Both the position numbers and the translations under genes were made by a program. Shown here piece after piece: positions 4,222 through 46,241 of a DNA stretch of 60,271 bases. The DNA is taken from the IMG/VR virus record IMGVR_UViG_3300044825_000512, positions 1 to 60,271 of that record. One strand, 5' to 3'. The notes under the pieces were generated by a model, which saw only the letters and a program-made list of their open reading frames with translations, did not search any database and had not been told where the DNA came from. Position 1 is the first letter of the stretch, and the number at the start of each line of letters is the position of its first letter. The DNA is from a virus.

Positions 4222-4788
4222 CTACTTATTCCTTGATGTCGCAACCTTCTTCTTGGATTGTTCTAAAAACATAAATGGCGCAGATGTATAGGCGTCATAC
4301 TTCGAAGCAATCTTGAGAGCCTCTTCAACAGTTGCTCCTTGAGCGAGCGCTCCAATCGCATAACTAGAACCCGAGCCAACGCCATAGAATCCTTTTGAAT
4401 CAAGAGCGATAGACATATCATCGGCGAGTTCAAAGACGGTGCCACCGATAGCGATAAGAAAAGCGAATTTAGTTTCGCCATCATCATCGGCTTCATTCCA
4501 CTTGTATTCGTTATCCTTGAAACATTGTTTCAAAGATGGAACAACTCGAGCAATCATGAAATGGTACAAATCATCTAATTCAGCATTGCTTGGTTTTGGT
4601 GGCATCCAAATGTGTTGAGCAATATCGCAAGGCGCACATTCGCCACTTCCAGCAATTATGAATTCCCCGCGCTTTGAAATCTTGACCATCTGCGGATGAT
4701 TAGCAACACGACCACTTCCAGCCGTCACTTGAGAATCAGCACCGAATAAAACCTTGTCCCGATACTGGACGGCTACGATTGTGGTCAT
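4222..4788 (-). CDS. Proteasome beta-subunit / HslV-like Ntn-hydrolase peptidase
   Basis: 188 aa. N-terminus MTTIVAV (Thr nucleophile after Met removal, as in HslV MTTIVSV), GADSQVT, conserved Lys in MVKISKRG, and YGVGSGSSYAIGAL. Confidence 0.8.
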   Translation of the reverse strand: MTTIVAVQYRDKVLFGADSQVTAGSGRVANHPQMVKISKRGEFIIAGSGECAPCDIAQHIWMPPKPSNAELDDLYHFMIARVVPSLKQCFKDNEYKWNEADDDGETKFAFLIAIGGTVFELADDMSIALDSKGFYGVGSGSSYAIGALAQGATVEEALKIASKYDAYTSAPFMFLEQSKKKVATSRNK

Positions 4789-4804: not shown

Positions 4805-5728
4805 CTAGGGTTTCACAACCTCGGTAGGAAGCGCCATAAGTCCGAATGAGGCGTTCTTCCACACCTCGGGAGTTCCCGTATCAGGCAAGTAACCGCCAGC
4901 CCCGCCAAGCAGAATTGGCATATTTGGGAATTGCTCACGGATAAGGCGCATTGAGTTGAAATATCCCTCGGGCGTGTACTTGAGATTCGATAGCGGGTCA
5001 TCGGCTAAACCGTCAGCACCGCAAGCAACGAAAATCATTGTTGGATTGAATTCTTCACACGCTGTAAGGAATCCCTCGGTTGCGCTAATCAAAGCATCGT
5101 CACCTGACCCTGAAGCAAGCGGGAAGTTATAGGCGCGATTATTCCAATCGCTGAGTAAACCCGTGCCTGGGAAAATCCCGTACTCATGAACTGAGTAAGT
5201 CAGAACATTCTTGTTACGGCGCAAGAGCATTTCGGTACCGTCACCATGGTGAGCATCGCAATCGAAGATAGCAACACGGTGTTCATATTCGTTGGTTGCT
5301 TTAGTTGCGGCGATAGCAAAGTCAGCGAAGATACAGAATCCGCTTGAGTAGTCACGCATCGCGTGATGCTTGGCTCCAGCAAAGTTGATGGCAAGCAAAG
5401 TTTTCTTGTCAATCAAAGTATCGAGCGCAGTCAAAGTACCGCTCACAAACAACTTGGCTAGTTCGCCTAGGTCGTGGCGTTGTCCGCTCCACTCAGTAGA
5501 TTCGCCTCGTACAGTCACATCGAATACATACGACATATCGTGAACAAGATGAAGGTCATCGGTAGAGCAATGCTCAGGTTCTATCTCCCAAACATTGAGT
5601 CGGCGCTTTTGCGCTTCAAGGACTAATTGATTGCGAGCATGAAGAAACCTGCGCCCTTGAGTTGGATGCGTTTTGTCAAAAACCCAATTCGCATACTCAG
5701 GCGAATGAACCAGTATTGCGTGTTCCAT
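4805..5728 (-). CDS. Histone-deacetylase (HDAC/AcuC/acetylpolyamine amidohydrolase) family deacetylase
   Basis: 307 aa with all family motifs: GAKHHA, FDCDAHHGDGT, ACGADGLADDPL and GGAGGY (catalytic Tyr). Confidence 0.85.
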   Translation of the reverse strand: MEHAILVHSPEYANWVFDKTHPTQGRRFLHARNQLVLEAQKRRLNVWEIEPEHCSTDDLHLVHDMSYVFDVTVRGESTEWSGQRHDLGELAKLFVSGTLTALDTLIDKKTLLAINFAGAKHHAMRDYSSGFCIFADFAIAATKATNEYEHRVAIFDCDAHHGDGTEMLLRRNKNVLTYSVHEYGIFPGTGLLSDWNNRAYNFPLASGSGDDALISATEGFLTACEEFNPTMIFVACGADGLADDPLSNLKYTPEGYFNSMRLIREQFPNMPILLGGAGGYLPDTGTPEVWKNASFGLMALPTEVVKP

Positions 5729-9352: not shown

Positions 9353-9467
9353 CCAAAATCGCGTAGCCGACAATTCCTTTCGCAGTTCCATCTAAAACAA
9401 TCCAAGCAACGAACATTCCAAGTAATGTCCAAAGTTGCCCAATCATGTCATTGATAAAGTTCTTCAC
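9294..9467 (-). CDS. Small two-TM membrane protein coupled to the secreted lectin protein
   Basis: Hand-translated: GTG overlapping the TAG of 9467..11650 (TAGTG), with AGGAGA 5 nt upstream. Product is ...MIGQLWTLLGMFVAWIVLDGTAKGIVGYAILATLGVWALTYPLRREKKED. Confidence 0.55.
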   Translation of the reverse strand: MKNFINDMIGQLWTLLGMFVAWIVLDGTAKGIVGYAILATLGVWALTYPLRREKKED

Positions 9468-11650
9468 TAAGGTCTCCTATATCCAGCACCGCCGATAGCG
9501 ACGGAAGCCATTGTAGTTGTTGCGATATTGCCAACGATTGTCGCGGCAATAATTGTTTTCGTTGCTTCTTCTCTTTCTTCAGGTGACATATCGGCACCGA
9601 GATTTCCAAGAGCAAAAATAAGTTGAGCAGGTGATTCGAATATCGCGCTGATAATTTCTGCTGGTGATGCGAGAAGTTCTAAAGCATCGGCAATCTCAGC
9701 GGTGATGATGACAGGGTTTCCATCTTCATCGGTTCGAACATCAACAGGGGTCTCGGCTGGAAGGTCGGCGAAATCAAGACCCGCTTCAATGAGTGCCGAG
9801 GCTGGCACCGCTTCCGCATCCGCGAATTGAGCAACAATCGCAGTCGCAATTATCTCGCGCTCCTCATCGTCGAGTTTTCCATCCGCTTTCGCAGATTCAA
9901 CAACAGAGGCAACTTCATCGGCTGTGACAGTTCCATCTTGTAAGATATCTTTTATTATTTCAGAGGGAGATTCTTCAGATGTCGGTTGTGGTTCAGGTGT
10001 TTGATTTGTCGGGTCAGTTTCCGTTGGGCTTTCAGAGGGTTGAGGCTCAGGTTCTTGAGAAGGCTCAGGAGTTGGCGTTGGCTCAGGGTCGGGAGAAGGT
10101 GACTCTTCAGGACTTGGACTTGGCTCAGGTTCAGGGGACGGAGTGGGAGTGGGTTCAGGTTCAGGACTTGGTTCAGGAGAAGGCTCAGGTGAAGGTTCAG
10201 GAGTTGGCTCGGGAGTCGGCTCTACCGAAGGGCTATCGCTTGGACTCGGAGCAGGGGTTGGTTCGGGACTTTGAATCGGCTCAGGTGACTGAGATGGAGT
10301 TGGGGTAGGCGATGGCGAAGGTGTGGGTTCAGTTGTGGACGGCTCAGGTTGCGGGGTCGGTTCAGGTTGAGGAATCGGAGTTGGCGAAGGTTGAGGGCTT
10401 GGCGAAGGTGAAGCCGTTGGTTCCGATGTTGGTTGAGGTTCAGGAGAAGGAGTGGAAGTTGGTTCCGACGGTGTTGGTGAAGGAGTCACCGTTGGTTCAG
10501 GTGTCGGGGTTGGTGTCGGAGTCGGCGACGGCTCAGGAGTTGGCTCGGGCTGAGGAGTTACTTGAGGTGTTGGAGCCGTGGAAGGACTAGCATCACCATA
10601 TTCAAGAATTACTTGAAGTCGCTTTACGATTCCACCGCAAGGGTCACCGAAGATTGCGTTGCTTGCTTGAATGACCGCATTATTTTGACCAAGGAAAATC
10701 TCGGAAACTTTTTGGATTGAACTTACAGCATGACATTGAGCATTGATTACAAAGTTCTCAGGTAATCCGTAACTAGCAAAAAATACATTGGTAAAAACTT
10801 TTCCAATCGGCGCAACAAGATTCAAAGATTCATTTTCGTTTGCCGTACCATTCACACTATTCGAAGGAGGTTGTGATGAATTGGACGGATTGGTTGTTGC
10901 TGTTGGGCTTTCTGATGGGGTGGGCTGTGGGCTTGATTCAGGGGTCGGCGAACTTGAAGGCGCGGGTTCAGTTGGCGATTGAGATGGAGTCGGCTCGGGT
11001 GATGGAGAGGATGAATCTGTTGGAGTCGGAGTTGCGGTGGACGAAGGCGACGGTGAAGGCTCGGGACTTGGACTTGGAGAGGGTTCGGGAGAAACAGTCG
11101 GAGTGGGCGAAGGAGAAGATTCAGGAGTTGGTGTCGGAGAAGCAATCACAGTCGGAGTATCAGATGTCGGAGACGCAGAAGGCTCAGGCGTTGGCGAAGG
11201 GGTGGGGGTGGGTGTTGGGGCAGGAGCAGGAGAACTCACCGAAACAGTAAAGACTGGTCCGTACCATCCAGCCCAAAAACCATTATCGATTCCCGATACA
11301 GAAATTGTTACTTGACCCGAAGCAACAGCGCTCACGCTGGTCTGCTCAATCGCATTGCCACTAAAACTTTGACCATTGATTGAAACGCTCCAGTTATCAG
11401 CAATCGGAGTACAACTACCAATACAGTTGGCGATAGTGTTATTGATTGCCACCGTTACAGTCGAGCCGTCGCTCACGGTTTTCACATAGGAAGCGCTACC
11501 GCCTCGGTAATCGAATTGAATCGAATCTCCCGAGACATTGCCATTGACCACGGATTCCCAAGACCCGCTGGCGCTCGCCGAATCGGACATGGGTAGGAGC
11601 GTCCACCCAAAGGCTAGGACGCAAACGGTCAAAACACGAAAAAGACGCAA
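9467..11650 (-). CDS. Secreted/cell-surface protein: signal peptide, beta-rich domain, PT/PS/PE linkers, SUEL-type (rhamnose/galactose) lectin domain, C-terminal hydrophobic anchor
   Basis: 727 aa with a TTG start. Signal peptide RLFRVLTVCVLAFGWTLLPMSDSASA. Lectin signature FASYG...C...SNAIFGDPCGGIVKRLQVILEY. C-terminus IIAATIVGNIATTTMASVAIGGAGYRRP. Confidence 0.85.
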   Translation of the reverse strand: MRLFRVLTVCVLAFGWTLLPMSDSASASGSWESVVNGNVSGDSIQFDYRGGSASYVKTVSDGSTVTVAINNTIANCIGSCTPIADNWSVSINGQSFSGNAIEQTSVSAVASGQVTISVSGIDNGFWAGWYGPVFTVSVSSPAPAPTPTPTPSPTPEPSASPTSDTPTVIASPTPTPESSPSPTPTVSPEPSPSPSPEPSPSPSSTATPTPTDSSSPSPEPTPSQSPTEPAPSSSPTPESSPQPTPSESPTATTNPSNSSQPPSNSVNGTANENESLNLVAPIGKVFTNVFFASYGLPENFVINAQCHAVSSIQKVSEIFLGQNNAVIQASNAIFGDPCGGIVKRLQVILEYGDASPSTAPTPQVTPQPEPTPEPSPTPTPTPTPEPTVTPSPTPSEPTSTPSPEPQPTSEPTASPSPSPQPSPTPIPQPEPTPQPEPSTTEPTPSPSPTPTPSQSPEPIQSPEPTPAPSPSDSPSVEPTPEPTPEPSPEPSPEPSPEPEPTPTPSPEPEPSPSPEESPSPDPEPTPTPEPSQEPEPQPSESPTETDPTNQTPEPQPTSEESPSEIIKDILQDGTVTADEVASVVESAKADGKLDDEEREIIATAIVAQFADAEAVPASALIEAGLDFADLPAETPVDVRTDEDGNPVIITAEIADALELLASPAEIISAIFESPAQLIFALGNLGADMSPEEREEATKTIIAATIVGNIATTTMASVAIGGAGYRRP
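9962..10594 (-). repeat. Pro/Thr/Ser/Glu-rich low-complexity coding repeat (linker 2)
   Basis: About 210 residues of (P-[TSE])n after the lectin domain. Degenerate 6-12 nt periodicity (ggttcagg/ggctcagg). Confidence 0.85.
10856..11233 (-). repeat. Pro/Thr/Ser-rich low-complexity coding repeat (linker 1)
   Basis: About 125 residues of PAPAPTPTPTPSPTPEPS... between the N-terminal domain and the lectin domain. Confidence 0.85.
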
Positions 11651-18292: not shown

Positions 18293-19297
18293 ATGCCATT
18301 TCGTTTTGCGAAAGCGGAAAGACCTCGGCGGATTCCTCTAAGTCCTGAAGAGCAAGCCCTTGCCCGTACTCTTTATGAATCAATTCAAAGAGCAACAGAC
18401 AAAATATCAATGAAGCAACTGGAGCGCTTGCTCCGTAATCTTGACCCACAAACTTTAGAGCGCTTGGTAAGTGCTATCACTATTGCTAATCAGAAAAGAA
18501 TTCAAGAAGCATTATTAGCCTCGATTGATATTGGTGGCAATAAAGCGATTGAACAGATTCAAGATATTGCTCCTAAGTTAGCCCTTCCAGCCTTCACACC
18601 AAGTAAAGTAAAGATAACCAATAAAAAGCCTATGGCTAACATGGAGTTCACACAGGTTCCTATGTGGGCGCAATCTCGACGACCTAAAGTAGATTTCAAG
18701 ATGTCTTTCAATAAGACTAATCCAAACTCTTTAGCCTTTGCCGAGCGCCGTGCTGGAGAACTTGTAGTTGCTATTGATAACTTGAGTCGTATCGCAATTC
18801 GTCAAACAATTATTGATGCCTTCAATGAACAGTTAGATTACAGAGCAACAGCCAAGAGAATCAAGAATGTTGTGGGACTTCACCCTCAATGGGCTAAAGC
18901 AGTTACAAAATTTGAACGAGATGAATTCGCTCGTCTAGTTCGTAGCGGATTGAAAGAAGAGACCGCTCGCGCTCGCGCCATGGAACGAGCATCACGATAT
19001 TCAGATTCTCTCAAGAGTAAACGAGCCACCATGATTGCTCGTACAGAGATTCAAATTGCTCAGAATGAGGGACGCTATGAAGGATGGAAACAAGCGGCTG
19101 AAGAAGGATTCGTAGACCCTGAAGCACAAAAAATGTGGGTTACTGCTCCCGATGAAAGAACTTGCGATATATGCGCTCCGCTAGACGGAGAACTTGTTCC
19201 TTGGAATGGTTCATTCTCAATCGGACTTGAAGCGCCAATCGTTCACCCTAATTGCCGTTGTACCATGGTAATCATTCCACCCGAAAGACGCCGATGA
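18293..19297 (+). CDS. Head morphogenesis protein, SPP1 gp7 / Mu F-like (MuF)
   Basis: C-terminal signature MIARTEIQIAQNEG...DERTCDICAPLDGELV...HPNCRCT. Confidence 0.9.
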   Translation: MPFRFAKAERPRRIPLSPEEQALARTLYESIQRATDKISMKQLERLLRNLDPQTLERLVSAITIANQKRIQEALLASIDIGGNKAIEQIQDIAPKLALPAFTPSKVKITNKKPMANMEFTQVPMWAQSRRPKVDFKMSFNKTNPNSLAFAERRAGELVVAIDNLSRIAIRQTIIDAFNEQLDYRATAKRIKNVVGLHPQWAKAVTKFERDEFARLVRSGLKEETARARAMERASRYSDSLKSKRATMIARTEIQIAQNEGRYEGWKQAAEEGFVDPEAQKMWVTAPDERTCDICAPLDGELVPWNGSFSIGLEAPIVHPNCRCTMVIIPPERRR

Positions 19298-21117
19298 CAA
19301 CCACTATCAATCTTCCTATTGGCTATCGTCCAGTTCTAAAACATGGCGAGCATGACCAGTCAAGCCATGGCTCATGGGCGCACGGGGTTCAGGTAGAGCC
19401 TGAAGTGGTTCGCTCGGTTCTTGATAGGGTCAAAGAGAACGGTGGTCTCTCAGTAAGCCTCAAGGACGGCTCAGAGCCTACAAAAGGCTTCATGGTCGCT
19501 AAGGGCAAGAAGTACGCCGCAATCGTGAAGGCGGATGACTTCTTCGATGAAGCCAAGGGCGCAGAGATTCTTTCCTCATACATGAAACAGCATAAGGCTG
19601 ACCTAGCAACAGGGAAAAACTACCTCGGTTTATGGCACAATACCGAGGATGGACAGGTCTACCTTGATGTATCAGAAAACATCATGGATGAGGGAGAGGC
19701 TACTTCAAGAGGTCGTGAACGCGACCAAATTTCCATTTGGGATGTAGCAAACTTCAAGGAAGTACAGACAGGAGGAACAGGTGGCATCGAAAAAACTCGA
19801 GGCAGTCGAACTACCCGATATGTCAAACATGACAGACGAGCAGATAGACGCATACGCCAAAGAGATTTGGGCGAAACTCGCACAAGGCAAACAAGATTCG
19901 AAGTAATCTATTTTGACTTTGGGTTGAAACCCGTATTCAAACATGGGGAACATGACCAATCAGAGCATGGCAACTGGGCGCGTGGATTTACAGATAGCGA
20001 GCGCGAACTTATTGAACGCATGGATGGGGTTGGTCCTAGTCTTGAAGATTTAGATAATGTAATCAAAGATGATAGAGAAGTTTCAGACGACGAAATTCGT
20101 ATGATGGTTGATAATGACCGCGATATGTATGACATCATTCAAGGAATGGTTGATGACAAGATGGCTTATCATCAAGATGAAATTTCTAAAATGCCCGAAA
20201 ACGAACAAATTAGAGTTCGTGAACAAATGGAAGATATGGCTCGAGACCAATATATTTCTGAAAACTATGATGATTTAGCAGAGCGTGTTCGCCTTGAATC
20301 GGGAGATAGCGGAGCGGTGGATGCTTCCGAACTTACCCCTTATTTTGATGAAGTCTATTCAATAGAACATACTGGAACAAGTGCGAGCGGTGTCGAAGTA
20401 ACTCTCCGCAGTAGTGTTGAAGAAGTTTACAGAGACGGCGATGACATCATGGTTAGCGCTGGCGTTTACGATGAGGACAATAATCGAGTTGGTGAAGTTA
20501 GCCGAAGATTCTTCAAAGAAAATGGCACATGGAATGTTGAACACGCCTTACTTGCTTTAGAAAGTGATGATGTTCGAGGTACTGGCTTTGGCAAAGAATT
20601 CATTAGGCAATCTGAGGCTTGGTACACAGCAAAAGGCATGGGTTATATCGAAGTTGGTACAGCATGGGACGGCGCTCGCCATTGGGCTAGAGCGGGTTAT
20701 GATTTTGCGCCCGATAAGGTTGTAAGAAATCTCAGTACAATCGCAAACGAAGTAGCAATGAGTCCTGAATCCTATGGAGCAAACACACCAGCGGGTAAAG
20801 AATTTGATTCGATTATGTCTCGCGCTACAAACGATTATCGCCGAGATTCTGAAGGTAGACCAACTTGGTCTACGGTAAAAGATATGAAAGAAGATAACTT
20901 TCCTTTACCCGCCGAATTCGCCAACATTGGATATAAGAGTGGCGATACTGAATGGGCTGGAAAGAATTTGATGTATGGATTGAAAATGTATTATGTCAAG
21001 GCTCTTACCGCTGAAGGTCAAAAACTTCTTGAGGGTCCTATTGACCACGATGGGGATGGATTGATTTACGATGGAACAGCCCGTGAGAAACCAGCGCCTA
21101 GTGGCGGAAACAAATAA
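19294..21117 (+). CDS. Large head-module protein with two KHGEHDQS(S/E)HG motifs and a GNAT-like acetyltransferase-fold C-terminal domain
   Basis: ATGA-coupled start at 19294. Motifs at 19339..19380 and 19939..19980. GNAT motif A-like VRGTGFGKEF, then ...WARAGYDF. Confidence 0.75.
   Translation: MTTTINLPIGYRPVLKHGEHDQSSHGSWAHGVQVEPEVVRSVLDRVKENGGLSVSLKDGSEPTKGFMVAKGKKYAAIVKADDFFDEAKGAEILSSYMKQHKADLATGKNYLGLWHNTEDGQVYLDVSENIMDEGEATSRGRERDQISIWDVANFKEVQTGGTGGIEKTRGSRTTRYVKHDRRADRRIRQRDLGETRTRQTRFEVIYFDFGLKPVFKHGEHDQSEHGNWARGFTDSERELIERMDGVGPSLEDLDNVIKDDREVSDDEIRMMVDNDRDMYDIIQGMVDDKMAYHQDEISKMPENEQIRVREQMEDMARDQYISENYDDLAERVRLESGDSGAVDASELTPYFDEVYSIEHTGTSASGVEVTLRSSVEEVYRDGDDIMVSAGVYDEDNNRVGEVSRRFFKENGTWNVEHALLALESDDVRGTGFGKEFIRQSEAWYTAKGMGYIEVGTAWDGARHWARAGYDFAPDKVVRNLSTIANEVAMSPESYGANTPAGKEFDSIMSRATNDYRRDSEGRPTWSTVKDMKEDNFPLPAEFANIGYKSGDTEWAGKNLMYGLKMYYVKALTAEGQKLLEGPIDHDGDGLIYDGTAREKPAPSGGNK
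19781..19906 (+). CDS. Embedded +1-frame ORF with strong SD (overlapping gene, or sign of a frameshift in 19294..21117)
   Basis: AGGAGG-aacag-GTG. 41 aa, ASKKLEAVELPDMSNMTDEQIDAYAKEIWAKLAQGKQDSK. The co-linear zero frame is unusually Arg-rich. Confidence 0.3.
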   Translation: MASKKLEAVELPDMSNMTDEQIDAYAKEIWAKLAQGKQDSK

Positions 21118-21320: not shown

Positions 21321-22955
21321 ATGGCGGATATTGCTCCTAAACTGATTCACCTAAGCGCTGAGAAACTCAATGCGCTACATGAGCGTGTCCATAAGTCGGA
21401 AGCAACCCCCGCGATTATCGAGGTTCACCACACAATTCTCAATGAGATGGCTCGTCGCAAGATGGAGCGCCCTCAAGATGATTGGGATAAGTACGAGATT
21501 CTTGTTGATTCAATCGACAATGTAGACCTAACCACCCTTGGCGGATTACCAGCCGAAACAGTTCTTGAAGTCATCAAGGCGACAGGTGATACCGCTGGCA
21601 ATATCAAAACCTTCCTGACCGTCAATGGTTATCAGATGCGAGTAGAACCCGTTGAAAAGCGAATCCAACAAGAAGATGGAAAATGGATTGTTTACAACGA
21701 AGAGGGAACAAGAAGTTTTGGAAGTTACGATTCCAAAGAAGAGGCTGAAGAACGGCTTCGTCAGATTCATGCGTTTTCAAAAGCCGACGATACTTACACT
21801 CCACCAAAGGCAGTACGCGCCGCGGCGCAACGAGCGATTGAATGGATTGATAACGGTCTTGCTGGAGATGGATTTACTTCCGTCGGTAGAACAAGAGCGG
21901 GTCAATTAGCCCGTGGTGAAAACATCAGTATCGAAACTCTCAAGCGAATGAAATCATTCTTCTCTCGTCACGCAGTTGATGATAAAGCGGTTGGATTCAA
22001 TCGCGGAGAAAAAGGATTCCCTAGCGCTGGTCGAGTTGCGTGGGATGCTTGGGGTGGAGATGCTGGATTCGCATGGGCTGAATCAATGGTTGAGCGATAT
22101 GAGAATCGAGTAGAAAAACATGGAGACCATGACCAATCCTCACACGGAGCGTGGGCTGGCGGAAATGCTGGTGGAGAAGATGGTGGCTCATCTCGCCCCC
22201 GTATGGCAGATGATGTCAAGCCAAGTTCAGAGCGAAGCGCAGATGCCGTCAAACAAGCAGAGCGACTAAGAAGAGACGCAGAGGCAGTAGAACCCGCAGT
22301 CACTTCTTTGATGGAAGGTATTGCTAAAACTATCGGTGCTGATTTCGCAGTTCTCGATGGCAAGAGTTCTCTTGAACAAAGATTGAAGTCCACAGATTCA
22401 CTTGCTCGCAAGATTGATGCCGATGCTGAAAAAGACCATGGCGGAGATAGAGAGAAAGCGGCGAACGCAATCTCCGATGCTGTTCGATACACACTCAATG
22501 TTGATGAAGCCGATTACACAGATGGCGTAGAAAAAACTGTTGATGCTTTGGAAGCAACAGGTTGGAAAGTTGAATCAGTCAAAAACTTTTGGCAAGCGGG
22601 TGACCCTTACGATGGCACCAATATCAAACTTAGCAAAGACGGCGTGAAGGTTGAACTACAACTTCACACTCCACAATCTCACCGAGTCAAAGAGGTTGAT
22701 TTACACACAGATTATGAGACCTATCGTAAATCGACTGATAATGCTGAACGCAAGCAGATTTGGGACAGAATGGTTGAGAAGGCTAAGGCGATTCCACGCC
22801 CTGCCAATATGGGCAAACTTATGACCCTTGGAACCCTCGTAGTCCAAACCTACGAGACGGCTCAACAGGCTGGATTGACTAAATCAACTGGGGTTGATAT
22901 TCTATGGTCAATAACGAGAGGAGGTATAGCCGTATGCGGTATTTCGCAAAACTAG
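21321..22955 (+). CDS. Large head-module protein with KHGDHDQSSHG motif and C-terminal RelA/SpoT-like (small alarmone synthetase / toxSAS-like) nucleotidyltransferase domain
   Basis: 544 aa. Ordered RSH synthetase motifs: RLKSTDSLARKI, ISDAVRYTL, DPYDGTNIKL, VELQLHTPQS and HTDYETYR. The peptide motif is at 22116..22157. Confidence 0.8.
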   Translation: MADIAPKLIHLSAEKLNALHERVHKSEATPAIIEVHHTILNEMARRKMERPQDDWDKYEILVDSIDNVDLTTLGGLPAETVLEVIKATGDTAGNIKTFLTVNGYQMRVEPVEKRIQQEDGKWIVYNEEGTRSFGSYDSKEEAEERLRQIHAFSKADDTYTPPKAVRAAAQRAIEWIDNGLAGDGFTSVGRTRAGQLARGENISIETLKRMKSFFSRHAVDDKAVGFNRGEKGFPSAGRVAWDAWGGDAGFAWAESMVERYENRVEKHGDHDQSSHGAWAGGNAGGEDGGSSRPRMADDVKPSSERSADAVKQAERLRRDAEAVEPAVTSLMEGIAKTIGADFAVLDGKSSLEQRLKSTDSLARKIDADAEKDHGGDREKAANAISDAVRYTLNVDEADYTDGVEKTVDALEATGWKVESVKNFWQAGDPYDGTNIKLSKDGVKVELQLHTPQSHRVKEVDLHTDYETYRKSTDNAERKQIWDRMVEKAKAIPRPANMGKLMTLGTLVVQTYETAQQAGLTKSTGVDILWSITRGGIAVCGISQN

Positions 22956-23665
22956 GGGCTAACAATGAGGCGATAAACATTTATCGCTTTGAGGTTGGCG
23001 ACACAGAGATGGTCGAGGACAGATGGGATTTACGCAGTAGTTCTTGGGTCAATAATCCTGATGCCGATGTTGTTCGTTACCTAACGCAAGGCGAAGGTGA
23101 TTTCCAAGAGTTAGCCGAAGAGGTTGCTCGTCAGATTTTTCCTCAAGCCTTCACCGAAGAAGCAACAAAGGCTCTAGGTAAGTTTGATTTACAGAAAGCC
23201 GAAGGGGAAAAGCGTTACACCCTTGGAGCCATGTACATCCCTGATATGGAAGATGCTCATGGAGAGTGGACGGATTCCGATGAATTACAAAGAGCAGTTT
23301 GGGATTATGTAAGAAGCAATGACCGCCGTATTCGTTTACAGCACAACAAAGAAGTAGTCGCTGGCGAATGGGTTGAAGTCATGGCATTTCCATATTCACT
23401 TACAGTTCCAATCAAGACTCCCGAAGGAGAAGAGTTTCAACATACCTATCCACCGAACACGGTGTTCTTAGGTGTCATTTGGGAACCTTGGGCATGGAAC
23501 ATGGTTCAAGAAGGAAAGATTCGTGGGTATTCAATCGGTGGAAAAGCCGAGCGTTTATTTGTCGATATTGATTTAGAGAAAAACGACCCAACGGTGTCGG
23601 ATGTACATATTGATACAATTATGTCCCCGTCGAAAAAGAAGCCAAAAAAGGACGAAACTGTATGA
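22934..23665 (+). CDS. XkdF-like prohead protease
   Basis: GAGAGGAGG SD before the ATG at 22934. KRYTLGAMYIPDMEDAHGEWTD...RIRLQHN...IRGYSIGG matches my recollection of the PBSX XkdF family. Confidence 0.7.
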   Translation: MRYFAKLGANNEAINIYRFEVGDTEMVEDRWDLRSSSWVNNPDADVVRYLTQGEGDFQELAEEVARQIFPQAFTEEATKALGKFDLQKAEGEKRYTLGAMYIPDMEDAHGEWTDSDELQRAVWDYVRSNDRRIRLQHNKEVVAGEWVEVMAFPYSLTVPIKTPEGEEFQHTYPPNTVFLGVIWEPWAWNMVQEGKIRGYSIGGKAERLFVDIDLEKNDPTVSDVHIDTIMSPSKKKPKKDETV

Positions 23666-24096
23666 AAAAAGACTTGAGAATGTTAGGCGAACTCCGCAAG
23701 GGTCCACTAGCAGGTATGGACGAAGATGAATTCAAGATGATTGAAGCAGATGTCCGCAAGTTTGGTTTCAAGGGTTTGAGCGGTTACGCAAAGTCGATGG
23801 TTCAAGAGGCTATGCGCCGTTTGGGTAATACAATCAACAAAGCAGTAGAACAAAAATTAGAAGATTTCAATAAGACAATTTCTGTCGGCGATAAAGTTTC
23901 TTGGAGCGCATCAGGCGGTAAGGCTGAAGGTAAAGTTCTTCGCATCGAGCGCTCAGGTCGAATCAATGTTCCTGATTCATCATTCAACATTCAAGGTACC
24001 GAGGATGACCCTGCGGTGCTAATCGCTTTGTATCGTGACGGTAAGCCAACCGATACAAAGGTTGGACACAAGATGTCCACACTAAAAAAAAAGTAG
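23662..24096 (+). CDS. DUF2945/Tudor-like domain protein (zero-frame product)
   Basis: 144 aa. GDKVSWSASGGKAEGKVLRIE...EDDPAVLIALYRDGKPTDTKVGHKMSTL resembles the hypervirulence-associated Tudor domain. Confidence 0.75.
   Translation: MKKDLRMLGELRKGPLAGMDEDEFKMIEADVRKFGFKGLSGYAKSMVQEAMRRLGNTINKAVEQKLEDFNKTISVGDKVSWSASGGKAEGKVLRIERSGRINVPDSSFNIQGTEDDPAVLIALYRDGKPTDTKVGHKMSTLKKK
24087..24093 (+). promoter_or_regulatory. Candidate -1 programmed ribosomal frameshift heptamer A_AAA_AAG
   Basis: In-frame X_XXY_YYZ slippery site within a 9-A run, one codon before the TAG. The -1 frame is open for 72 more codons and has no start codon of its own. Confidence 0.55.
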
Positions 24097-24311
24097 TTCT
24101 TGAGAAGCACGGTGACCACGACCAATCTAGTCACGGTCACGGCAACGGTGGAGATGATTCTGAAGGTGAAGATTCATCAGAGCCAAAAAATCTAAAACCA
24201 AAGTTTGTACCTTACGATGATGACTCCGAAGGTGAGTTTGAAGATTTAGATTACGATGACCCTAAGTACATGGACACCATGGACTACGCTAGACCCAAGA
24301 AAAAGGGGTAA
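24093..24311 (+). CDS. -1 frame extension of 23662..24096 carrying the fourth KHGDHDQSSHG motif
   Basis: Reads VVLEKHGDHDQSSHGHGNGGDDSEGEDSSEPKNLKPKFVPYDDDSEGEFEDLDYDDPKYMDTMDYARPKKKG. There is no ATG/GTG/TTG in frame between the upstream stop (24042) and 24093. Confidence 0.55.
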   Translation, partial: VVLEKHGDHDQSSHGHGNGGDDSEGEDSSEPKNLKPKFVPYDDDSEGEFEDLDYDDPKYMDTMDYARPKKKG

Positions 24312-41590: not shown

Positions 41591-41656
41591 TTGGAATTGA
41601 TTCAAAAAAACTAAATAAATTATCGTGACCAACCTAGTGTCCCAAGGAGAAAAGAT

Positions 41657-42022
41657 ATGACAGATTTACGCGCCAAGATATTTGAGGCTGACGACATTAC
41701 GAAGGAACTATTGGAAGTCCCTGAATGGGGAGTAACAGTAGAGATTCGTTCGATGACGGCAGGACAAAGAGCAACACTTACTGAAGGAATTAGTTCCACA
41801 ACAGATAAAGTGGATGTTTCAAATATGTACGCCAAAACTGTAATCGCAACCGTGTTCGACCCTGAAACGGGTCTACCAATTTTTACGGACAAAGACCGTG
41901 AAGCCATCCTTTCAAAGAACGGCGCTGTAATTGAGCGCCTTGCTACAAAGGCTCTTGGAAGTTCAGGTCTAAGTGAGAAGGCGGTAGACCAAGCACAGGC
42001 TCGATTTCCTCAAGAATCCTGA
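41657..42022 (+). CDS. Tail assembly chaperone (gpG-like)
   Basis: 121 aa, directly upstream of the tape-measure gene. A downstream overlapping ORF has no start codon of its own. Confidence 0.75.
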   Translation: MTDLRAKIFEADDITKELLEVPEWGVTVEIRSMTAGQRATLTEGISSTTDKVDVSNMYAKTVIATVFDPETGLPIFTDKDREAILSKNGAVIERLATKALGSSGLSEKAVDQAQARFPQES

Positions 42023-42200
42023 GAAACGGTTTCTTTTCGAGTTAGCAGAAAAGTTAGGACGGACGGTGGGAGAACTTCTTTACGGAAGTAAATCCCACCG
42101 CCCTCTTAGCAGTATGGAATTGACAGAGTGGAACGCGTTTTACATCTTGAAAGAAAAAGAACGCGAGAAAGCCGAGAGAAGAGCAAAGGCTAGGAGATAA
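42006..42200 (+). CDS. Frameshift extension of the tail assembly chaperone (gpT-like part), +1 frame
   Basis: The +1 frame is open from 41988 and ends at TAA 42198..42200, abutting the tape-measure ATG. It reads ...EKRFLFELAEKLGRTVGELLYGSKSHRPLSSMELTEWNAFYILKEKEREKAERRAKARR. Confidence 0.6.
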   Translation, partial: FLKNPEKRFLFELAEKLGRTVGELLYGSKSHRPLSSMELTEWNAFYILKEKEREKAERRAKARR

Positions 42201-45200
42201 ATGGCTGAATCACCAACCATGGAAGTCCGCGCTCGGTTATCGGCGGACTCAGCCCAGTTCACTCAAGGCATGGATAAAGCCGTAAAATCGGCTAACGAAT
42301 TCCAACAAGCCTCTTCAAAATTACAAAGTTCGCTGACTGCCATTGGCGTTGCTTCAGGCGCGGCAATGGCAGGTCTTATCGCTTTCGGAATGAAATCATT
42401 CAAAGCGGCCGCAGAGGTTGAGCGTTTAGATTTAGCACTTCAAGCAGTTGGGGCATCAAGCGGTAAAGGATATGAAACTCTCAAAAGCGCATCTGACGCC
42501 ATGCGAGAAGTTGGTATCCAAGCGGCGGTTGCTCAAAAGACAACACTCAAATTCGCTCAATCAAATATAGATTTATCAAAGTCCGCTGACCTTGCGAGAG
42601 TTGCTCAAGACTTATCCGTAGCATCATCAATGAGCGCAGAGGAAGCGCTTCAAGCGGTGACCTTTGCTATTACAACTGGCAATACAAGAATCCTTCGTCA
42701 AGTAGGTATCACAACAGGCGCTACCGAAGCCTACGACAGATACGCGGCGACTCTTGGAAAAACTGGTTCACAACTAAACATGACCGAACGGCGTCAGGCT
42801 GTTCTCAATCTTGTTACAAAAGAAGGCGCTAAAGCGGCGGGCGCTTATGCTTTGGCTTTACAGTCTCCAGCAAAGTTAGTAACTCTCTTTGGCGACCTAC
42901 ACAATGAGTTACAAGTTTCTATGGGTATGGCTCTTGTCAAGGGCTTTGGACCAATCATCAAGTCCGCATTTAGATTTGAACAAACACTTGTCAAAGCAGT
43001 TGGCTCAGGCGGAAAACTTGAAGTTATTGTTGAAGCCTTACAAAAAGTCTTTGTAAAACTAACTGAACCTATTGCTAAAGCAATAGATAAATTTAGTGAT
43101 TTCATGGATAGTTTAGATTTGACTGGCAAGGGCGTCAATGACATTGCTGGAACAATAGAAAAAGTTCTCCCAGTCATTGCTATGTTTGGAACTTATTTTG
43201 CTACTAAAGCAAGTAAACCTATTTTTGGAAGTGTTCCTATTTTTGGCAAATTATTAGAAAAAATCAATCCAATAGGTGCGGCTTTTGTTGCTATGGCAAT
43301 GACATCAACTCAAGTTCAATCTGCTATTGGAAGATTACTTACCGCGCTAAAACCACTTCTTTCGGTTGGGCAAAGCGTAAGCGATATTTTTGGCAAAGTT
43401 ATGGCAGTAGCAGTTTCTATTGTTGCCAAGGCTATCGATTTATTAGCAACAGCAGTTAGTAAAATAATTGGATTTTTTCAAAAATATAAAACAGTTGCTT
43501 ATGTTCTAGTTGGAGCAATCGCGGCTGTCACCGCAGGAATCATTGCTTACAAAATTCAAACAGGTTTATCTACCGTAATCACAAATCTAAAAACTGGCGC
43601 AACTGAAAGACTCAACGCGGCTATGTTGGTTTTGAAAAGCACGGTATTTCTTTATGTAGTTGCCTTGGTTGCTCTCGTAGCGGCGTTTGTCTATGCGTGG
43701 AAGAACAGCGAAACTTTCCGTGAAGTATTTACAAATGTATTCAATACAGTTGCTCAAGTAGTTGGAACGGCTTTATCTTTTGTTTTGACCGCTTTAGGTA
43801 ACTTGATGATTGCCTTTGGACAAACAATCAGTCCAGCCACCTCCTTTGGTCAAACTCTTATTAGCGTAGTTCAATTTATTTATCAGGCTTATGTCACCGC
43901 AGTTCAAGGAATCATCAAGGGTCTCATCATGTTCTTGAGCGCTTTGCGCTATGTAATGAGCGGACAGACAGCCTTTGGCAAAGTAGTCCGAGCAGTTCTG
44001 AACTTTGTATTCAAAGCCTTCGCAACCGTTGTTGGTGGAATCCTCAAGTTCATCGGATTTTTCCTTGAGGGTCTAGGTATGTTGCTTGATACTCATGGAA
44101 TTGTTGGCAAAGTAATTGGAATGATTCTTGATTTCTTATGGAAAACTTTTGCTACGGTTATTGGCGGAATTATCAAATTTATTGGTATCTTCATTGAATT
44201 CCTTGGCAATCTGTTAGACACAAACAACATTGTCGGTATGACCATTGCCAAGATTCTTGACTTCTTGATTGATGCTTTTGCTACCGTGTTTGGCGGTATC
44301 TTCAAATACATAGGAACTTTTATTGGTTTCTTAGGCGACCTGCTTGATAGCAATTCTTTTGTCGGTAAAGCCATTGCCAAAATTATCAATTTTATTGCTC
44401 AAGTTTATTTTACTTTAGTTGAAAAAGTAAGTGGATTCTTAGCAAAAATTATTGGGGCTTTAGTTGATTGGGTAAAAGGAAATCGTCAATCTTTAGAAAT
44501 TGCCATAGATTTATTCAATAACTTTGCTGAAGGAGTTGGCAAGGCTCTTGCGTTTATTCCGCAAATTCTTGGGCAAACACTTCAACAAGTTGGTAATTGG
44601 TTGAATTCTATTGCTAAATTAGTAGCAGACAAAGTTCAGGGTATTGCTGACAAATTGCGTAGCAATCCTCTGACTATGGTACTTGCTGGTCCAGTTGAGG
44701 CATTGGCAACAGGAATAAGAAAGTTGGGCGAAACGGCTCAGAAAACTTCTGAAACAATTTCTAAACCATTTATTACTTTTGCTTCAAAAATAACAGGGGC
44801 AACAAAACAAATTATTTCTGATGGAGCATTAGGCGGTTTGATTTCTAAATTAGAAACAACCCGTAATGCTTTAGTTGCTGTTAGCAAAACCGCAAGCGGA
44901 TTGAAAGAAAAAGAATTTGGAACTGATTTAGTCAATTTCATTTCAGGTGGTCTAAAAAAGATTGGCGACACTTCAAAGAAAATTGGCGACACAATCCTCG
45001 AAGTAACCAAAGTTCCCATTGCTGAAGGATTAGTTCAGGCTATTTCCGACGCCCTTACCTCAGTTGGTGGCTTTGCGAAGAAGGCTGGAGAAACAGTTTT
45101 AGAGGCTGGCGACATCAAGATGGGTACTGAGTTAGTTCAGTTGTTATCCGATGCCTCAAAGATTATTGGTGGAGCAGTAAGTAAGGTCGGTTCGTTTGTA

Positions 45201-46241
45201 ACCGAACTAAAACAGTTTGAGGTTGGCGATATTCTCGGTGACCTTGTTGAAAATGTAGTTGATTTTGCTATTCCTAAGTTGGAGCAACTTTACAATGTTC
45301 TTGAAGGAATCAAGGATGTAGAGGTTGGTAAGTTCCTCGTTGAGAATCTCAGCGAGATGAGCATTATGGCTGGCGAAAAAATTCTTGCTTTTGCGAGCGC
45401 AGTCAAATCATTTACAACTGGAAATGTTCTTGGGAAATTTACCGATGCTTTTGGAAGTTTGGCAGATGAACTCAAGAAGGGTCTTGGCTTTGGAGATATT
45501 CTTGCTGAAGAAGCAAAGAAGGCAGAAGCCCTAGCCAACGCAAACGCGGCTGATGATGATGCGGCAAACGCAATCCAAGACCGTGCCGATTTGATGAAAA
45601 AAATCCGCGAGGCTATGACGGCAGGTATTGAGTCAATGCGCGATGTCCTCACAGATTTACAAGATGCGGCTAAACAGTTTGCTGATTCACTAAAGGACAC
45701 AATCCTAAGTTTTGCTGGTCTCAAGGGAGTTGAATTACCTGATGGATTTATTCCAAAGGCTAAATCACTTATCGAGAATATGCGTATGCGTTTGGATAAA
45801 AGCCAACAATTCGCTAATCAGATTCTTACTCTTCAAGGATTAGGACTTGATGCTAAAGCAATTCAAGACCTTGTTGAAGAGGGACCAATCAAGGGCGCTC
45901 AACTTGCGGCGTCAATTCTTGGTGGCGGTGCCGAGGCTATTGCTCAAATCAACGAACTACAAAAGCAGATTAGTTTCACAGGTGCGGCGATTGGTATGTA
46001 CGGTTCTGAAGCGGCGTTTGGTGCCAAGATTGCTAACGCTCAAATGAATCTTGCTGAAGTTACTGACGCTTCTATGGGAGTTCGTGGCTTGGCTGGAAAC
46101 AACATTGTTATTGAGCAGGGCGCCTTTGTTGTCAATGTTGATACAACTGGATTGAATACAGTTGATGAAAAGGCTGACCTCATCACACAAAGAATTCAAG
46201 AGACATTCGCTATCTTGGCAAAGGAGTTGGCTAACAGATAA
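42201..46241 (+). CDS. Tape measure protein
   Basis: 1346 aa. Helical and hydrophobic repeats, and its position after the chaperone pair. Confidence 0.95.
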   Translation: MAESPTMEVRARLSADSAQFTQGMDKAVKSANEFQQASSKLQSSLTAIGVASGAAMAGLIAFGMKSFKAAAEVERLDLALQAVGASSGKGYETLKSASDAMREVGIQAAVAQKTTLKFAQSNIDLSKSADLARVAQDLSVASSMSAEEALQAVTFAITTGNTRILRQVGITTGATEAYDRYAATLGKTGSQLNMTERRQAVLNLVTKEGAKAAGAYALALQSPAKLVTLFGDLHNELQVSMGMALVKGFGPIIKSAFRFEQTLVKAVGSGGKLEVIVEALQKVFVKLTEPIAKAIDKFSDFMDSLDLTGKGVNDIAGTIEKVLPVIAMFGTYFATKASKPIFGSVPIFGKLLEKINPIGAAFVAMAMTSTQVQSAIGRLLTALKPLLSVGQSVSDIFGKVMAVAVSIVAKAIDLLATAVSKIIGFFQKYKTVAYVLVGAIAAVTAGIIAYKIQTGLSTVITNLKTGATERLNAAMLVLKSTVFLYVVALVALVAAFVYAWKNSETFREVFTNVFNTVAQVVGTALSFVLTALGNLMIAFGQTISPATSFGQTLISVVQFIYQAYVTAVQGIIKGLIMFLSALRYVMSGQTAFGKVVRAVLNFVFKAFATVVGGILKFIGFFLEGLGMLLDTHGIVGKVIGMILDFLWKTFATVIGGIIKFIGIFIEFLGNLLDTNNIVGMTIAKILDFLIDAFATVFGGIFKYIGTFIGFLGDLLDSNSFVGKAIAKIINFIAQVYFTLVEKVSGFLAKIIGALVDWVKGNRQSLEIAIDLFNNFAEGVGKALAFIPQILGQTLQQVGNWLNSIAKLVADKVQGIADKLRSNPLTMVLAGPVEALATGIRKLGETAQKTSETISKPFITFASKITGATKQIISDGALGGLISKLETTRNALVAVSKTASGLKEKEFGTDLVNFISGGLKKIGDTSKKIGDTILEVTKVPIAEGLVQAISDALTSVGGFAKKAGETVLEAGDIKMGTELVQLLSDASKIIGGAVSKVGSFVTELKQFEVGDILGDLVENVVDFAIPKLEQLYNVLEGIKDVEVGKFLVENLSEMSIMAGEKILAFASAVKSFTTGNVLGKFTDAFGSLADELKKGLGFGDILAEEAKKAEALANANAADDDAANAIQDRADLMKKIREAMTAGIESMRDVLTDLQDAAKQFADSLKDTILSFAGLKGVELPDGFIPKAKSLIENMRMRLDKSQQFANQILTLQGLGLDAKAIQDLVEEGPIKGAQLAASILGGGAEAIAQINELQKQISFTGAAIGMYGSEAAFGAKIANAQMNLAEVTDASMGVRGLAGNNIVIEQGAFVVNVDTTGLNTVDEKADLITQRIQETFAILAKELANR
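43980..44366 (+). repeat. Three tandem 129-nt (43-aa) coding repeats inside the tape measure gene, plus a partial fourth
   Basis: Units beginning KVVRAVLNFVFKAFATVVGGILKFIGFFLEGLGMLLDTHGIVG, KVIGMILDFLWKTFATVIGGIIKFIGIFIEFLGNLLDTNNIVG and MTIAKILDFLIDAFATVFGGIFKYIGTFIGFLGDLLDSNSFVG. Confidence 0.85.

Follow-up and report, generated by a model that had tools for sequence, protein, structure and literature searches.

A conserved nine-adenine run beside a stop codon: a probable recoding site in a Tudor-like head-module gene of a phage clade

The subject of this analysis is one gene in the head module of the virus record IMGVR_UViG_3300044825_000512, whose 60,271 nucleotides were analysed as a single stretch (hereafter, the window). 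The gene encodes a small Tudor-like protein and stops directly after a run of nine adenines (A9), and the reading frame one base back (the -1 frame) stays open past the run for a further 72 codons. Comparison with related loci makes it very probable that the run is a programmed recoding site from which two isoforms, of 144 and 216 amino acids, would be made. That the slip is mainly transcriptional, made by RNA polymerase, is an even call on the same evidence. The earlier note on this DNA had proposed either that programmed frameshifting yields a short and a long isoform or that the run carries a one-base homopolymer error; the first proposal is now strongly supported, by evidence that is entirely comparative.

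The split gene and its relatives

The end of the open reading frame (ORF), CTA AAA AAA AAG TAG, and the position of the in-register heptamer A_AAA_AAG, both described in the earlier note, were confirmed in the window sequence, where the zero frame around the run is ACA CTA AAA AAA AAG TAG TTC. The elements of the site are as follows.

23662..24096, + strand: zero-frame ORF for the short isoform, 144 amino acids, with an N-terminal three-helix domain and a Tudor-like beta-barrel (translation, Pfam, AlphaFold2 [AF2])
24084..24092, + strand: A9 run, the putative slippery element; exactly nine A's are kept in 54 related loci
24087..24093, + strand: heptamer A_AAA_AAG in X_XXY_YYZ register; the last G becomes T or A in relatives
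24094..24096, + strand: zero-frame TAG, adjoining the last codon that contains the run; the adjacency is kept, as TAG or TAA, in 50 of 50 A9 loci of the first census
24093..24311, + strand: -1-frame extension, 72 codons plus TAA, a predicted disordered acidic tail (ORF reading, AF2)

A second in-register heptamer, A_AAA_AAA at 24084..24090, overlaps A_AAA_AAG. Frame reading also bore out what had been said of the -1 frame, which opens at 24045, past a TAA at 24042..24044, closes with the TAA at 24309..24311, and in the window has no ATG, GTG or TTG upstream of the run. Counted from 24093, its 72 codons encode VVLEKHGDHDQSSHGHGNGGDDSEGED..., and a -1 shift on the run would give a product of 216 amino acids (...STLKKK-VVLEKHGDHDQSSHG...) with the predicted junction peptide ...TLKKKVVLEK..., ...MSTLKKKVVLEK... 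across the two frames. The A9 run is the sole homopolymer of at least nine in the window, and a scan for poly-A beside a stop returned five other matches there, all A6 to A8, with no other run of at least nine A's next to a stop. However, chance alone would supply approximately 0.6 to 2 such homopolymers per 60 kb, and the case therefore rests on comparison with relatives.

Eighty related IMG/VR loci were fetched, and both flanking protein anchors could be located in 61 sequences (60 loci and the window). Exactly nine A's, a zero-frame TAG or TAA one base past the run, and a -1-frame extension were found in 50 of the 61, a count that overstates independence because the loci share ancestry. Relaxed anchors added four further A9 loci and one A10+TAG locus that likewise requires a -1 shift. 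By our count of dataset ids, the A9 loci come from 42 IMG datasets. Moreover, when 241 million metagenome records were scanned with a pattern that permitted A8, A9, or A10, 25 contigs were returned, every one of them A9. The exact 144-amino-acid protein of the window is present on four independently assembled contigs, and a single short contig has an A8 variant of it. A sequencing or assembly error, the true gene being a single 216-amino-acid ORF with A10, would need only a one-base change to fuse the frames, and a few A10 contigs do exist; but with the same arrangement assembled independently so many times, the error suggested as an alternative in the earlier note is rejected, and we consider it scarcely credible.

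A protein search brought up three apparent classes of homologue: proteins of approximately 144 amino acids ending STLKKK or STLKKN, in-frame fusions of 205-243 amino acids, and proteins of approximately 218 amino acids. The last class was first taken as natural loss of the stop codon, a view that was rejected when the DNA proved to have A9+TAG, the gene callers having translated TAG as Q. Such versions, with TAG as Gln and junk tails that mimic read-through, stand in public collections (L081 1294-1953, L082 1501-2157; P0010, P0011, P0017, P0032, P0045, and others). In general, public gene calls for the family are wrong or inconsistent, as 144-residue truncations, 140-residue fragments, or products of approximately 218 residues, and in most relatives what would be the real long product is missed.

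That the -1 frame is translated is indicated by the way the extension has evolved. Among 36 distinct extensions of the A9 type, pairwise differences at the three codon positions of the -1 frame are 0.117, 0.119, and 0.380, a pattern of purifying selection in that frame. The earliest possible start in the -1 frame falls at codon 57-61 of approximately 70 in 49 of 49 complete A9 loci, which is 3' of the conserved KHGDHDQSSHG, DDSEGEDSSEPKN, and DDSEGEF.DLD.DDP blocks; no A9 locus of the census has a start codon before the run in this frame, and no conserved rare start codon was found in the extension frame of the A9 loci. Finally, the conceptual shifted product aligns without gaps across the junction to the in-frame homologues. 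On these three grounds (codon-position pattern, late first start, and gapless alignment), independent initiation, read-through of the TAG, and a decaying remnant are all rejected. It is true that relatives such as locus L083 lack the extension altogether, so that a short form can suffice. Nevertheless, an extension left unexpressed in the A9 phages as a decaying remnant would not be expected to keep near-invariant motifs and a selected codon pattern within the A9 loci themselves, and separate production by re-initiation would have to use a non-standard start that is nowhere conserved. We regard this pair of explanations as highly improbable.

Alternative states of the gene and what the site conserves

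The same gene has a second place at which relatives are split. Five loci are in frame at the main junction and yet carry A10+TTAG or A9+CTAG approximately 230 nucleotides (nt) upstream, in the linker that joins the helical domain to the Tudor barrel; in these, the helical domain ends …EEKKN*, and the Tudor domain and extension follow in the -1 frame. The positions are as follows.

L055 3050-3059: upstream slip site, homologous to window 23852..23860
L057 1282-1291: upstream slip site, likewise
L064 3037-3046: upstream slip site, likewise
L067 3188-3197: upstream slip site, likewise
L069 3192-3200: upstream slip site, likewise
23852..23860, + strand: helical-Tudor linker in the window, A5+TTAG, in frame; the homologous position of the alternative slip site

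At this linker, other relatives have an in-frame A9 with stops near in both other frames (L033-L044, e.g., L033 3192-3200; also L002, L010, and L049), and two have an in-frame A11 (L031 2129-2139 and L086 812-822). Slippage at these in-frame runs would give a protein of the helical domain only, and some phages may thus make three nested products. In-frame alleles that have KKK at the main junction are all A10 (L011, L031, L070, L084, and L086-L088), A8 alleles occur among close relatives (L063 and P0007), and only the outgroup L053, L056, and L072 is without any run. On a rough neighbour-joining tree, loci in the A9 state are spread over the whole clade, with the alternative states scattered among them, which argues that the split state is the prevailing and selected one. 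Throughout, the poly-A and stop cassette sits at a domain boundary, at either of two in the same gene.

This diversity raises the possibility of an unprogrammed mutational hot spot, in which replication slippage or phase variation leaves A9 as a tolerated frameshift, rescued by polymerase or ribosome noise or by A10 genomes, as in the poly-A tracts of endosymbionts. The A8 and A10 alleles among close relatives are as this notion would have them, as is the alternation of split and fused states at each of the two domain boundaries. However, the out-of-frame A9 dominates heavily (54 loci as opposed to a handful, and every one of 25 contigs in an unbiased scan), and it persists where protein identity to the window is down to 62% and extension DNA identity down to 62%. 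Moreover, purifying selection on the extension within A9 lineages points to selection for the split state and not to drift. A hot spot of this kind is, in our judgement, very unlikely, and programmed recoding is the better account of the A9 state.

What is conserved at the site is the run and the stop, and not the heptamer as such. Both lysine codons are AAA in all 39 distinct A9 sequences, although AAA and AAG are used 184:155, and leucine just ahead of the run is encoded by CTA in 38 of the 39 (TTA in the other) where CTA makes up 10% of leucine codons. Upstream of the run, by comparison, only 1 of 19 third codon positions is invariant. All loci that require the shift at the main junction have A9, except for two with A10. 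The base 3' of the run there is mostly G, T in one subclade (CTA AAA AAA AAT TAG), and A in two loci; over the main and upstream sites together, an in-register heptamer is present at every one with a last base of G, T, C, or A, and the whole A9 or A10 run is invariant. The codon that opens the -1 frame past the run is GTA in 33 of 33 valine cases (GTA usage, 25%) and otherwise TTA, and the codon after it always begins with a purine in A9 sequences, which keeps the zero-frame stop in place. With run length, the AAA codons, and the adjacent stop fixed, the CTA codon nearly so, and the base after the run free, the conserved unit is best written YTA-A9-N-TAR: a run length with an adjacent stop, and not the dnaX heptamer. 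This constraint on run length exceeds the needs of either coding or the heptamer, in loci that are, again, phylogenetically related. Of the two features that relatives were to share, the two-frame arrangement was found conserved, and the heptamer was found always in register but variable in its last base.

No stimulatory element of the usual kinds was detected. RNAalifold on 22 diverse loci gave no helix at the usual 3' spacing of 5-9 nt, only a four-pair hairpin approximately 19 nt downstream; no match to an Rfam frameshift element was obtained; and a Shine-Dalgarno (SD)-like element approximately 10-14 nt 5' of the shift site is neither present in the window nor conserved in relatives, the AAGG seen 5' of the site in some of them falling on a variable lysine codon (AAG or AAA). 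Three candidate structures were considered and set aside. A downstream stem, CCAYGAC/GTCAYGG, 22 nt 3', is a by-product of the D-H-D...S-H-G codons, has no covariation, and loses pairs in every variant; a hairpin just 5' of the run, GGACA-N5-TGTCC, is confined to a 'KMS' subset and hence not conserved; and a conserved CCAAC..GTTGG helix ending 18 nt 5' of the run is confounded with conserved coding for KPTDTKVG and was not accepted as a stimulator. Thus, of the description "canonical A_AAA_AAG like E. coli dnaX" in the earlier note, the in-register heptamer stands, and conservation of the G, the 3' stem-loop, and the 5' SD-like element do not.

Polymerase or ribosome

In the scheme that we propose, normal decoding would stop at the TAG directly past the A9 run and yield the 144-residue helical plus Tudor-like protein, and in a fraction of expression events slippage on the run would put the ribosome in the -1 frame to make the 216-residue protein with its 72-residue tail. 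If the slip is transcriptional, the polymerase would realign on nine A:T pairs filling the RNA-DNA hybrid and add one A, and the resulting A10 mRNA would then be decoded in the ordinary way as ...L K K K V V L E K H G..., perhaps with a contribution from ribosomes that slip on the same run. The RNA-DNA hybrid is 9-10 bp long, and one extra A is the commonest slippage product. Both isoforms would probably work together with the protease and scaffold in the prohead interior.

The host matters here for its lysine tRNAs. The capsid protein is 55-57% identical to those of Arthrobacter and Microbacterium phages, and one homologue is named as coming from a Micrococcales metagenome-assembled genome, so the host probably belongs to the Micrococcales. 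Bacteria of this order generally have separate tRNA-Lys species for AAA and AAG. The window has no tRNA genes, hence no tRNA-Lys of its own.

Polymerase slippage is favoured by runs of 9-10 A's that match the hybrid, a free flanking base, and the lack of ribosomal stimulators; all recoding sites, main and upstream, carry 9-10 A's, 3-4 beyond what a heptamer needs. Runs of nine A/T slip efficiently with bacterial RNA polymerase, and Thermus dnaX exploits such slippage (PMC5009743). The run length known to be required is approximately nine bases (PMC5009743; PMC3711429). Poor shifting at AAG is expected in bacteria with two tRNA-Lys, and this has been proposed as the reason for polymerase slippage in Thermus (PMC5009743). 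Reporter slippage efficiencies of 10% for A7, 40% for A9, and 63% for A11 have been published, with the levels of transcription and translation not separated (PMC3711429). Several considerations pull the other way. Poly-A runs are slippery for ribosomes as well, and the reporter series is blind to the level at which slippage occurred. Every site combines an in-register X_XXY_YYZ heptamer with an immediate stop, a "shifty stop" context that suits a ribosomal mechanism. In-frame A9 and A11 runs are tolerated at other places in this gene in some relatives, which implies either that slippage is not very efficient or that truncated products are acceptable or useful. Further, the surveyed loci are not independent events; we infer the isoforms and the slipping machine from comparative evidence, and we infer the host, hence its set of tRNA-Lys.

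The same 216-residue product would result from purely ribosomal -1 frameshifting, whether by tandem tRNA-Lys slip on A_AAA_AAG or A_AAA_AAA or by P-site slip with the stop unread in the A site. Its attractions are considerable: at all recoding sites the heptamer runs straight into a TAG or TAA, the unvarying GTA preserves that stop against a usage of one-quarter, A_AAA_AAG, A_AAA_AAC, and A_AAA_AAA are established shift sites (PMC5009743), and -1 frameshifts that extend coat proteins are well known in T7, T3, A2, and A118. On the other hand, the run is longer than the heptamer requires at each site, the Z base varies, and there is neither a conserved 3' stem-loop or pseudoknot nor a 5' SD-like element; nor is the probable actinobacterial host a promising one, since it should own a separate tRNA-Lys(CUU), which has been proposed to work against slippage at AAG in Thermus. 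The stop itself may be kept merely because the next zero-frame stop sits 33 codons downstream (ORF 24100..24195), so that under either model loss of the TAG would give the major product a hydrophobic junk tail. A purely ribosomal mechanism is a strong rival, if on balance the less likely one, and the mainly transcriptional one stays an even call.

Among known systems, the closest working analogues of the site are the Thermus thermophilus dnaX gene and the two-ORF A10 dnaX genes (PMC5009743; PMC3711429), which similarly have 9-10 A's on the coding strand, two products with a common N-terminus, nearby stops in the unused frames, no need of an RNA stimulator, and conservation of run length and not of the heptamer. 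As in the two-ORF genes, the long product here would require the shift and the short one ends directly past the site; in T. thermophilus, however, it is the long form that is in frame, and here the gene is a phage head-module gene known from sequence alone. E. coli dnaX has the identical heptamer in the same register, a -1 shift, and two isoforms, but there the shifted product is the short one and here the long, the G varies, the run is 3 nt longer in all relatives, and no 3' stem-loop or 5' SD-like element accompanies it; membership of an E. coli dnaX-type cassette accordingly fails on the stimulators, and the heptamer, though always in register, is not kept in its last base. Biologically, the nearest cases are the phage coat extensions (T7 10A/10B, T3, Lactobacillus phage A2, and Listeria A118/A500) and lambda G/GT, which share with this gene a late or structural role, a minor long and a major short isoform (here predicted) with a common N-terminus, and related phages that carry the extension in frame or out of frame; they differ in that the present protein is a protease- and scaffold-associated Tudor protein and not a coat protein or tail chaperone, its tail is disordered and acidic and not an Ig-like domain, and its slippery element is a long poly-A. 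In Shigella spa13/mxiE, Citrobacter tssM, and Buchnera poly-A tracts, 9-11 A/T likewise split an ORF and polymerase slippage restores the full-length product, whereas here the split state is conserved, apparently selected across a phage clade, and placed exactly at domain boundaries.

In one sense this would be a known trick in a new example, with the added twist of the same cassette at two alternative domain boundaries. The natural series of A9 split, A10 fused, run-less fused, and relocated sites could separate transcriptional from ribosomal slippage in a setting about which little is known, that of high-GC Gram-positive hosts that have two tRNA-Lys.

The protein, its motif and its neighbourhood

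The Tudor-like label given in the earlier note is borne out by Pfam, in which Hva1_TUDOR scores above its cut-off. The features that bear on function are as follows.

23887..24045, + strand: Hva1_TUDOR/DUF2945 (PF11160), residues 76-128; Pfam, 31.3 bits against a gathering cut-off of 24.1
22904..23665, + strand: XkdF-type prohead protease (Peptidase_S78_2), the upstream gene; Pfam
19342..19371, + strand: HDQ motif copy in the head-module ORF 19294..21117; motif search
19942..19971, + strand: second HDQ motif copy in ORF 19294..21117; motif search
22119..22148, + strand: HDQ motif copy in ORF 21321..22955; motif search
24108..24137, + strand: HGDHDQSSHG motif within the extension; motif search

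The AF2 model has three helices over residues 1-69 and beta strands forming a barrel over 78-137, with a block-mean predicted local distance difference test (pLDDT) score of 81-87, and residues 147-216 of the extension are predicted to be disordered (pLDDT <50). The top structural match in BFVD is a phage Hva1 TUDOR protein (E 8e-12), and the PDB match to Hva1 itself (4p5n) is weak (E 0.11, template modelling [TM] score 0.54). Among viral structure models, neighbours include the same module fused to XkdF or to prohead proteases. The gene lies in the virion morphogenesis module between the XkdF protease gene, whose stop its ATG overlaps (ATGA), and the scaffold-like, decoration-like, and major capsid genes. 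Of cultured phages, tblastn found only two distant relatives: Limnohabitans phage DC31, in which the Tudor domain has a coiled-coil, scaffold-like region as its fusion partner, and Roseobacter phage CRP-811, in which it is part of a polyprotein that bears the annotation major capsid protein and whose long C-terminal portion, downstream of the Tudor domain, we read as a putative protease plus capsid protein. From the gene position, the protease fusions, and the DC31 and CRP-811 fusions, the Tudor-module protein would appear to reside within the prohead in association with the protease and scaffold. Neither the A run nor the HDQ motif is present in DC31 or CRP-811, megablast with the region found nothing in 50,697 phage records, and no PHROGs family was found for the protein. 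Literature searches returned nothing relevant on DUF2945/Hva1 in phages and no paper describing the gene family, the HDQ motif, or recoding in the family.

The extension contains a motif, K-H-G-[DE]-H-D-Q-S-x-H-G, usually followed by x-W-A, of which the head module has four copies; the three beyond the extension are found where the earlier note had claimed them in general terms. Two neighbouring head proteins carry copies close to the N-terminus and at internal domain boundaries, and in the homologues P0018, P0020, P0025, and P0038 the motif flanks variable inserted modules. Its role may be in protease processing, targeting, or metal binding. Neither a Pfam family nor a paper was found for it, and Arthrobacter phage Laroye, one of the cultured phages closest in capsid protein (54% identity), has no HDQ motif in its head module. 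The recoding site, if it acts as proposed, would regulate the share of a protease- and scaffold-associated protein that bears the acidic tail, and a tail motif common to several head proteins suggests that prohead assembly may use a targeting or processing signal not described before.

A broader synthesis, which we put forward tentatively and rate as doubtful, is that a clade of freshwater actinobacterial phages has a movable poly-A plus stop cassette (YTA-A9/10-N-TAR) at either of two domain boundaries; that programmed transcriptional slippage there would set the dose of nested isoforms (helical; helical plus Tudor; helical plus Tudor plus acidic tail); and that the KHGDHDQSSHG tail, whose motif three other places in the head module share, would be a prohead-targeting or protease-processing signal. 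If so, it would be the first conserved example of programmed slippage by RNA polymerase in a morphogenesis gene of tailed phages.

Several further observations were made in passing. Locus L083 (426-1052, 1070-2035), a relative without the extension, has directly downstream a paralogue in which the same N-terminal helical domain is fused to DUF5824 and not to Tudor; the helical domain looks like a shared adaptor for different cargo domains. In the head module, the MuF-like ORF 18293..19297 overlaps the next ORF (window 19252..19297), whose true start is likely the ATG at 19294 (ATGA); this start puts the first HDQ motif approximately 17 residues from the N-terminus of that protein. Elsewhere in the window, two small ORFs (41657..42022 and 42066..42200) before the tape-measure gene (42201..46241) resemble the two ORFs of a tail assembly chaperone pair; the frame of the second is +1 (or -2) with respect to that of the first, a second recoding event may lie near ...GAA TCC TGA G..., and an intergenic A7 run lies at 41604..41610. 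A histone deacetylase domain protein (PF00850, E 2e-55; 4805..5728, - strand) adjoins an ORF with a weak proteasome-subunit match (4222..4788, - strand), an unusual pair of cargo genes for a siphovirus-like genome, and a 727-residue protein (9467..11650, - strand) has a sub-threshold SUEL/rhamnose-binding lectin match of 28.3 bits against a cut-off of 31.4.

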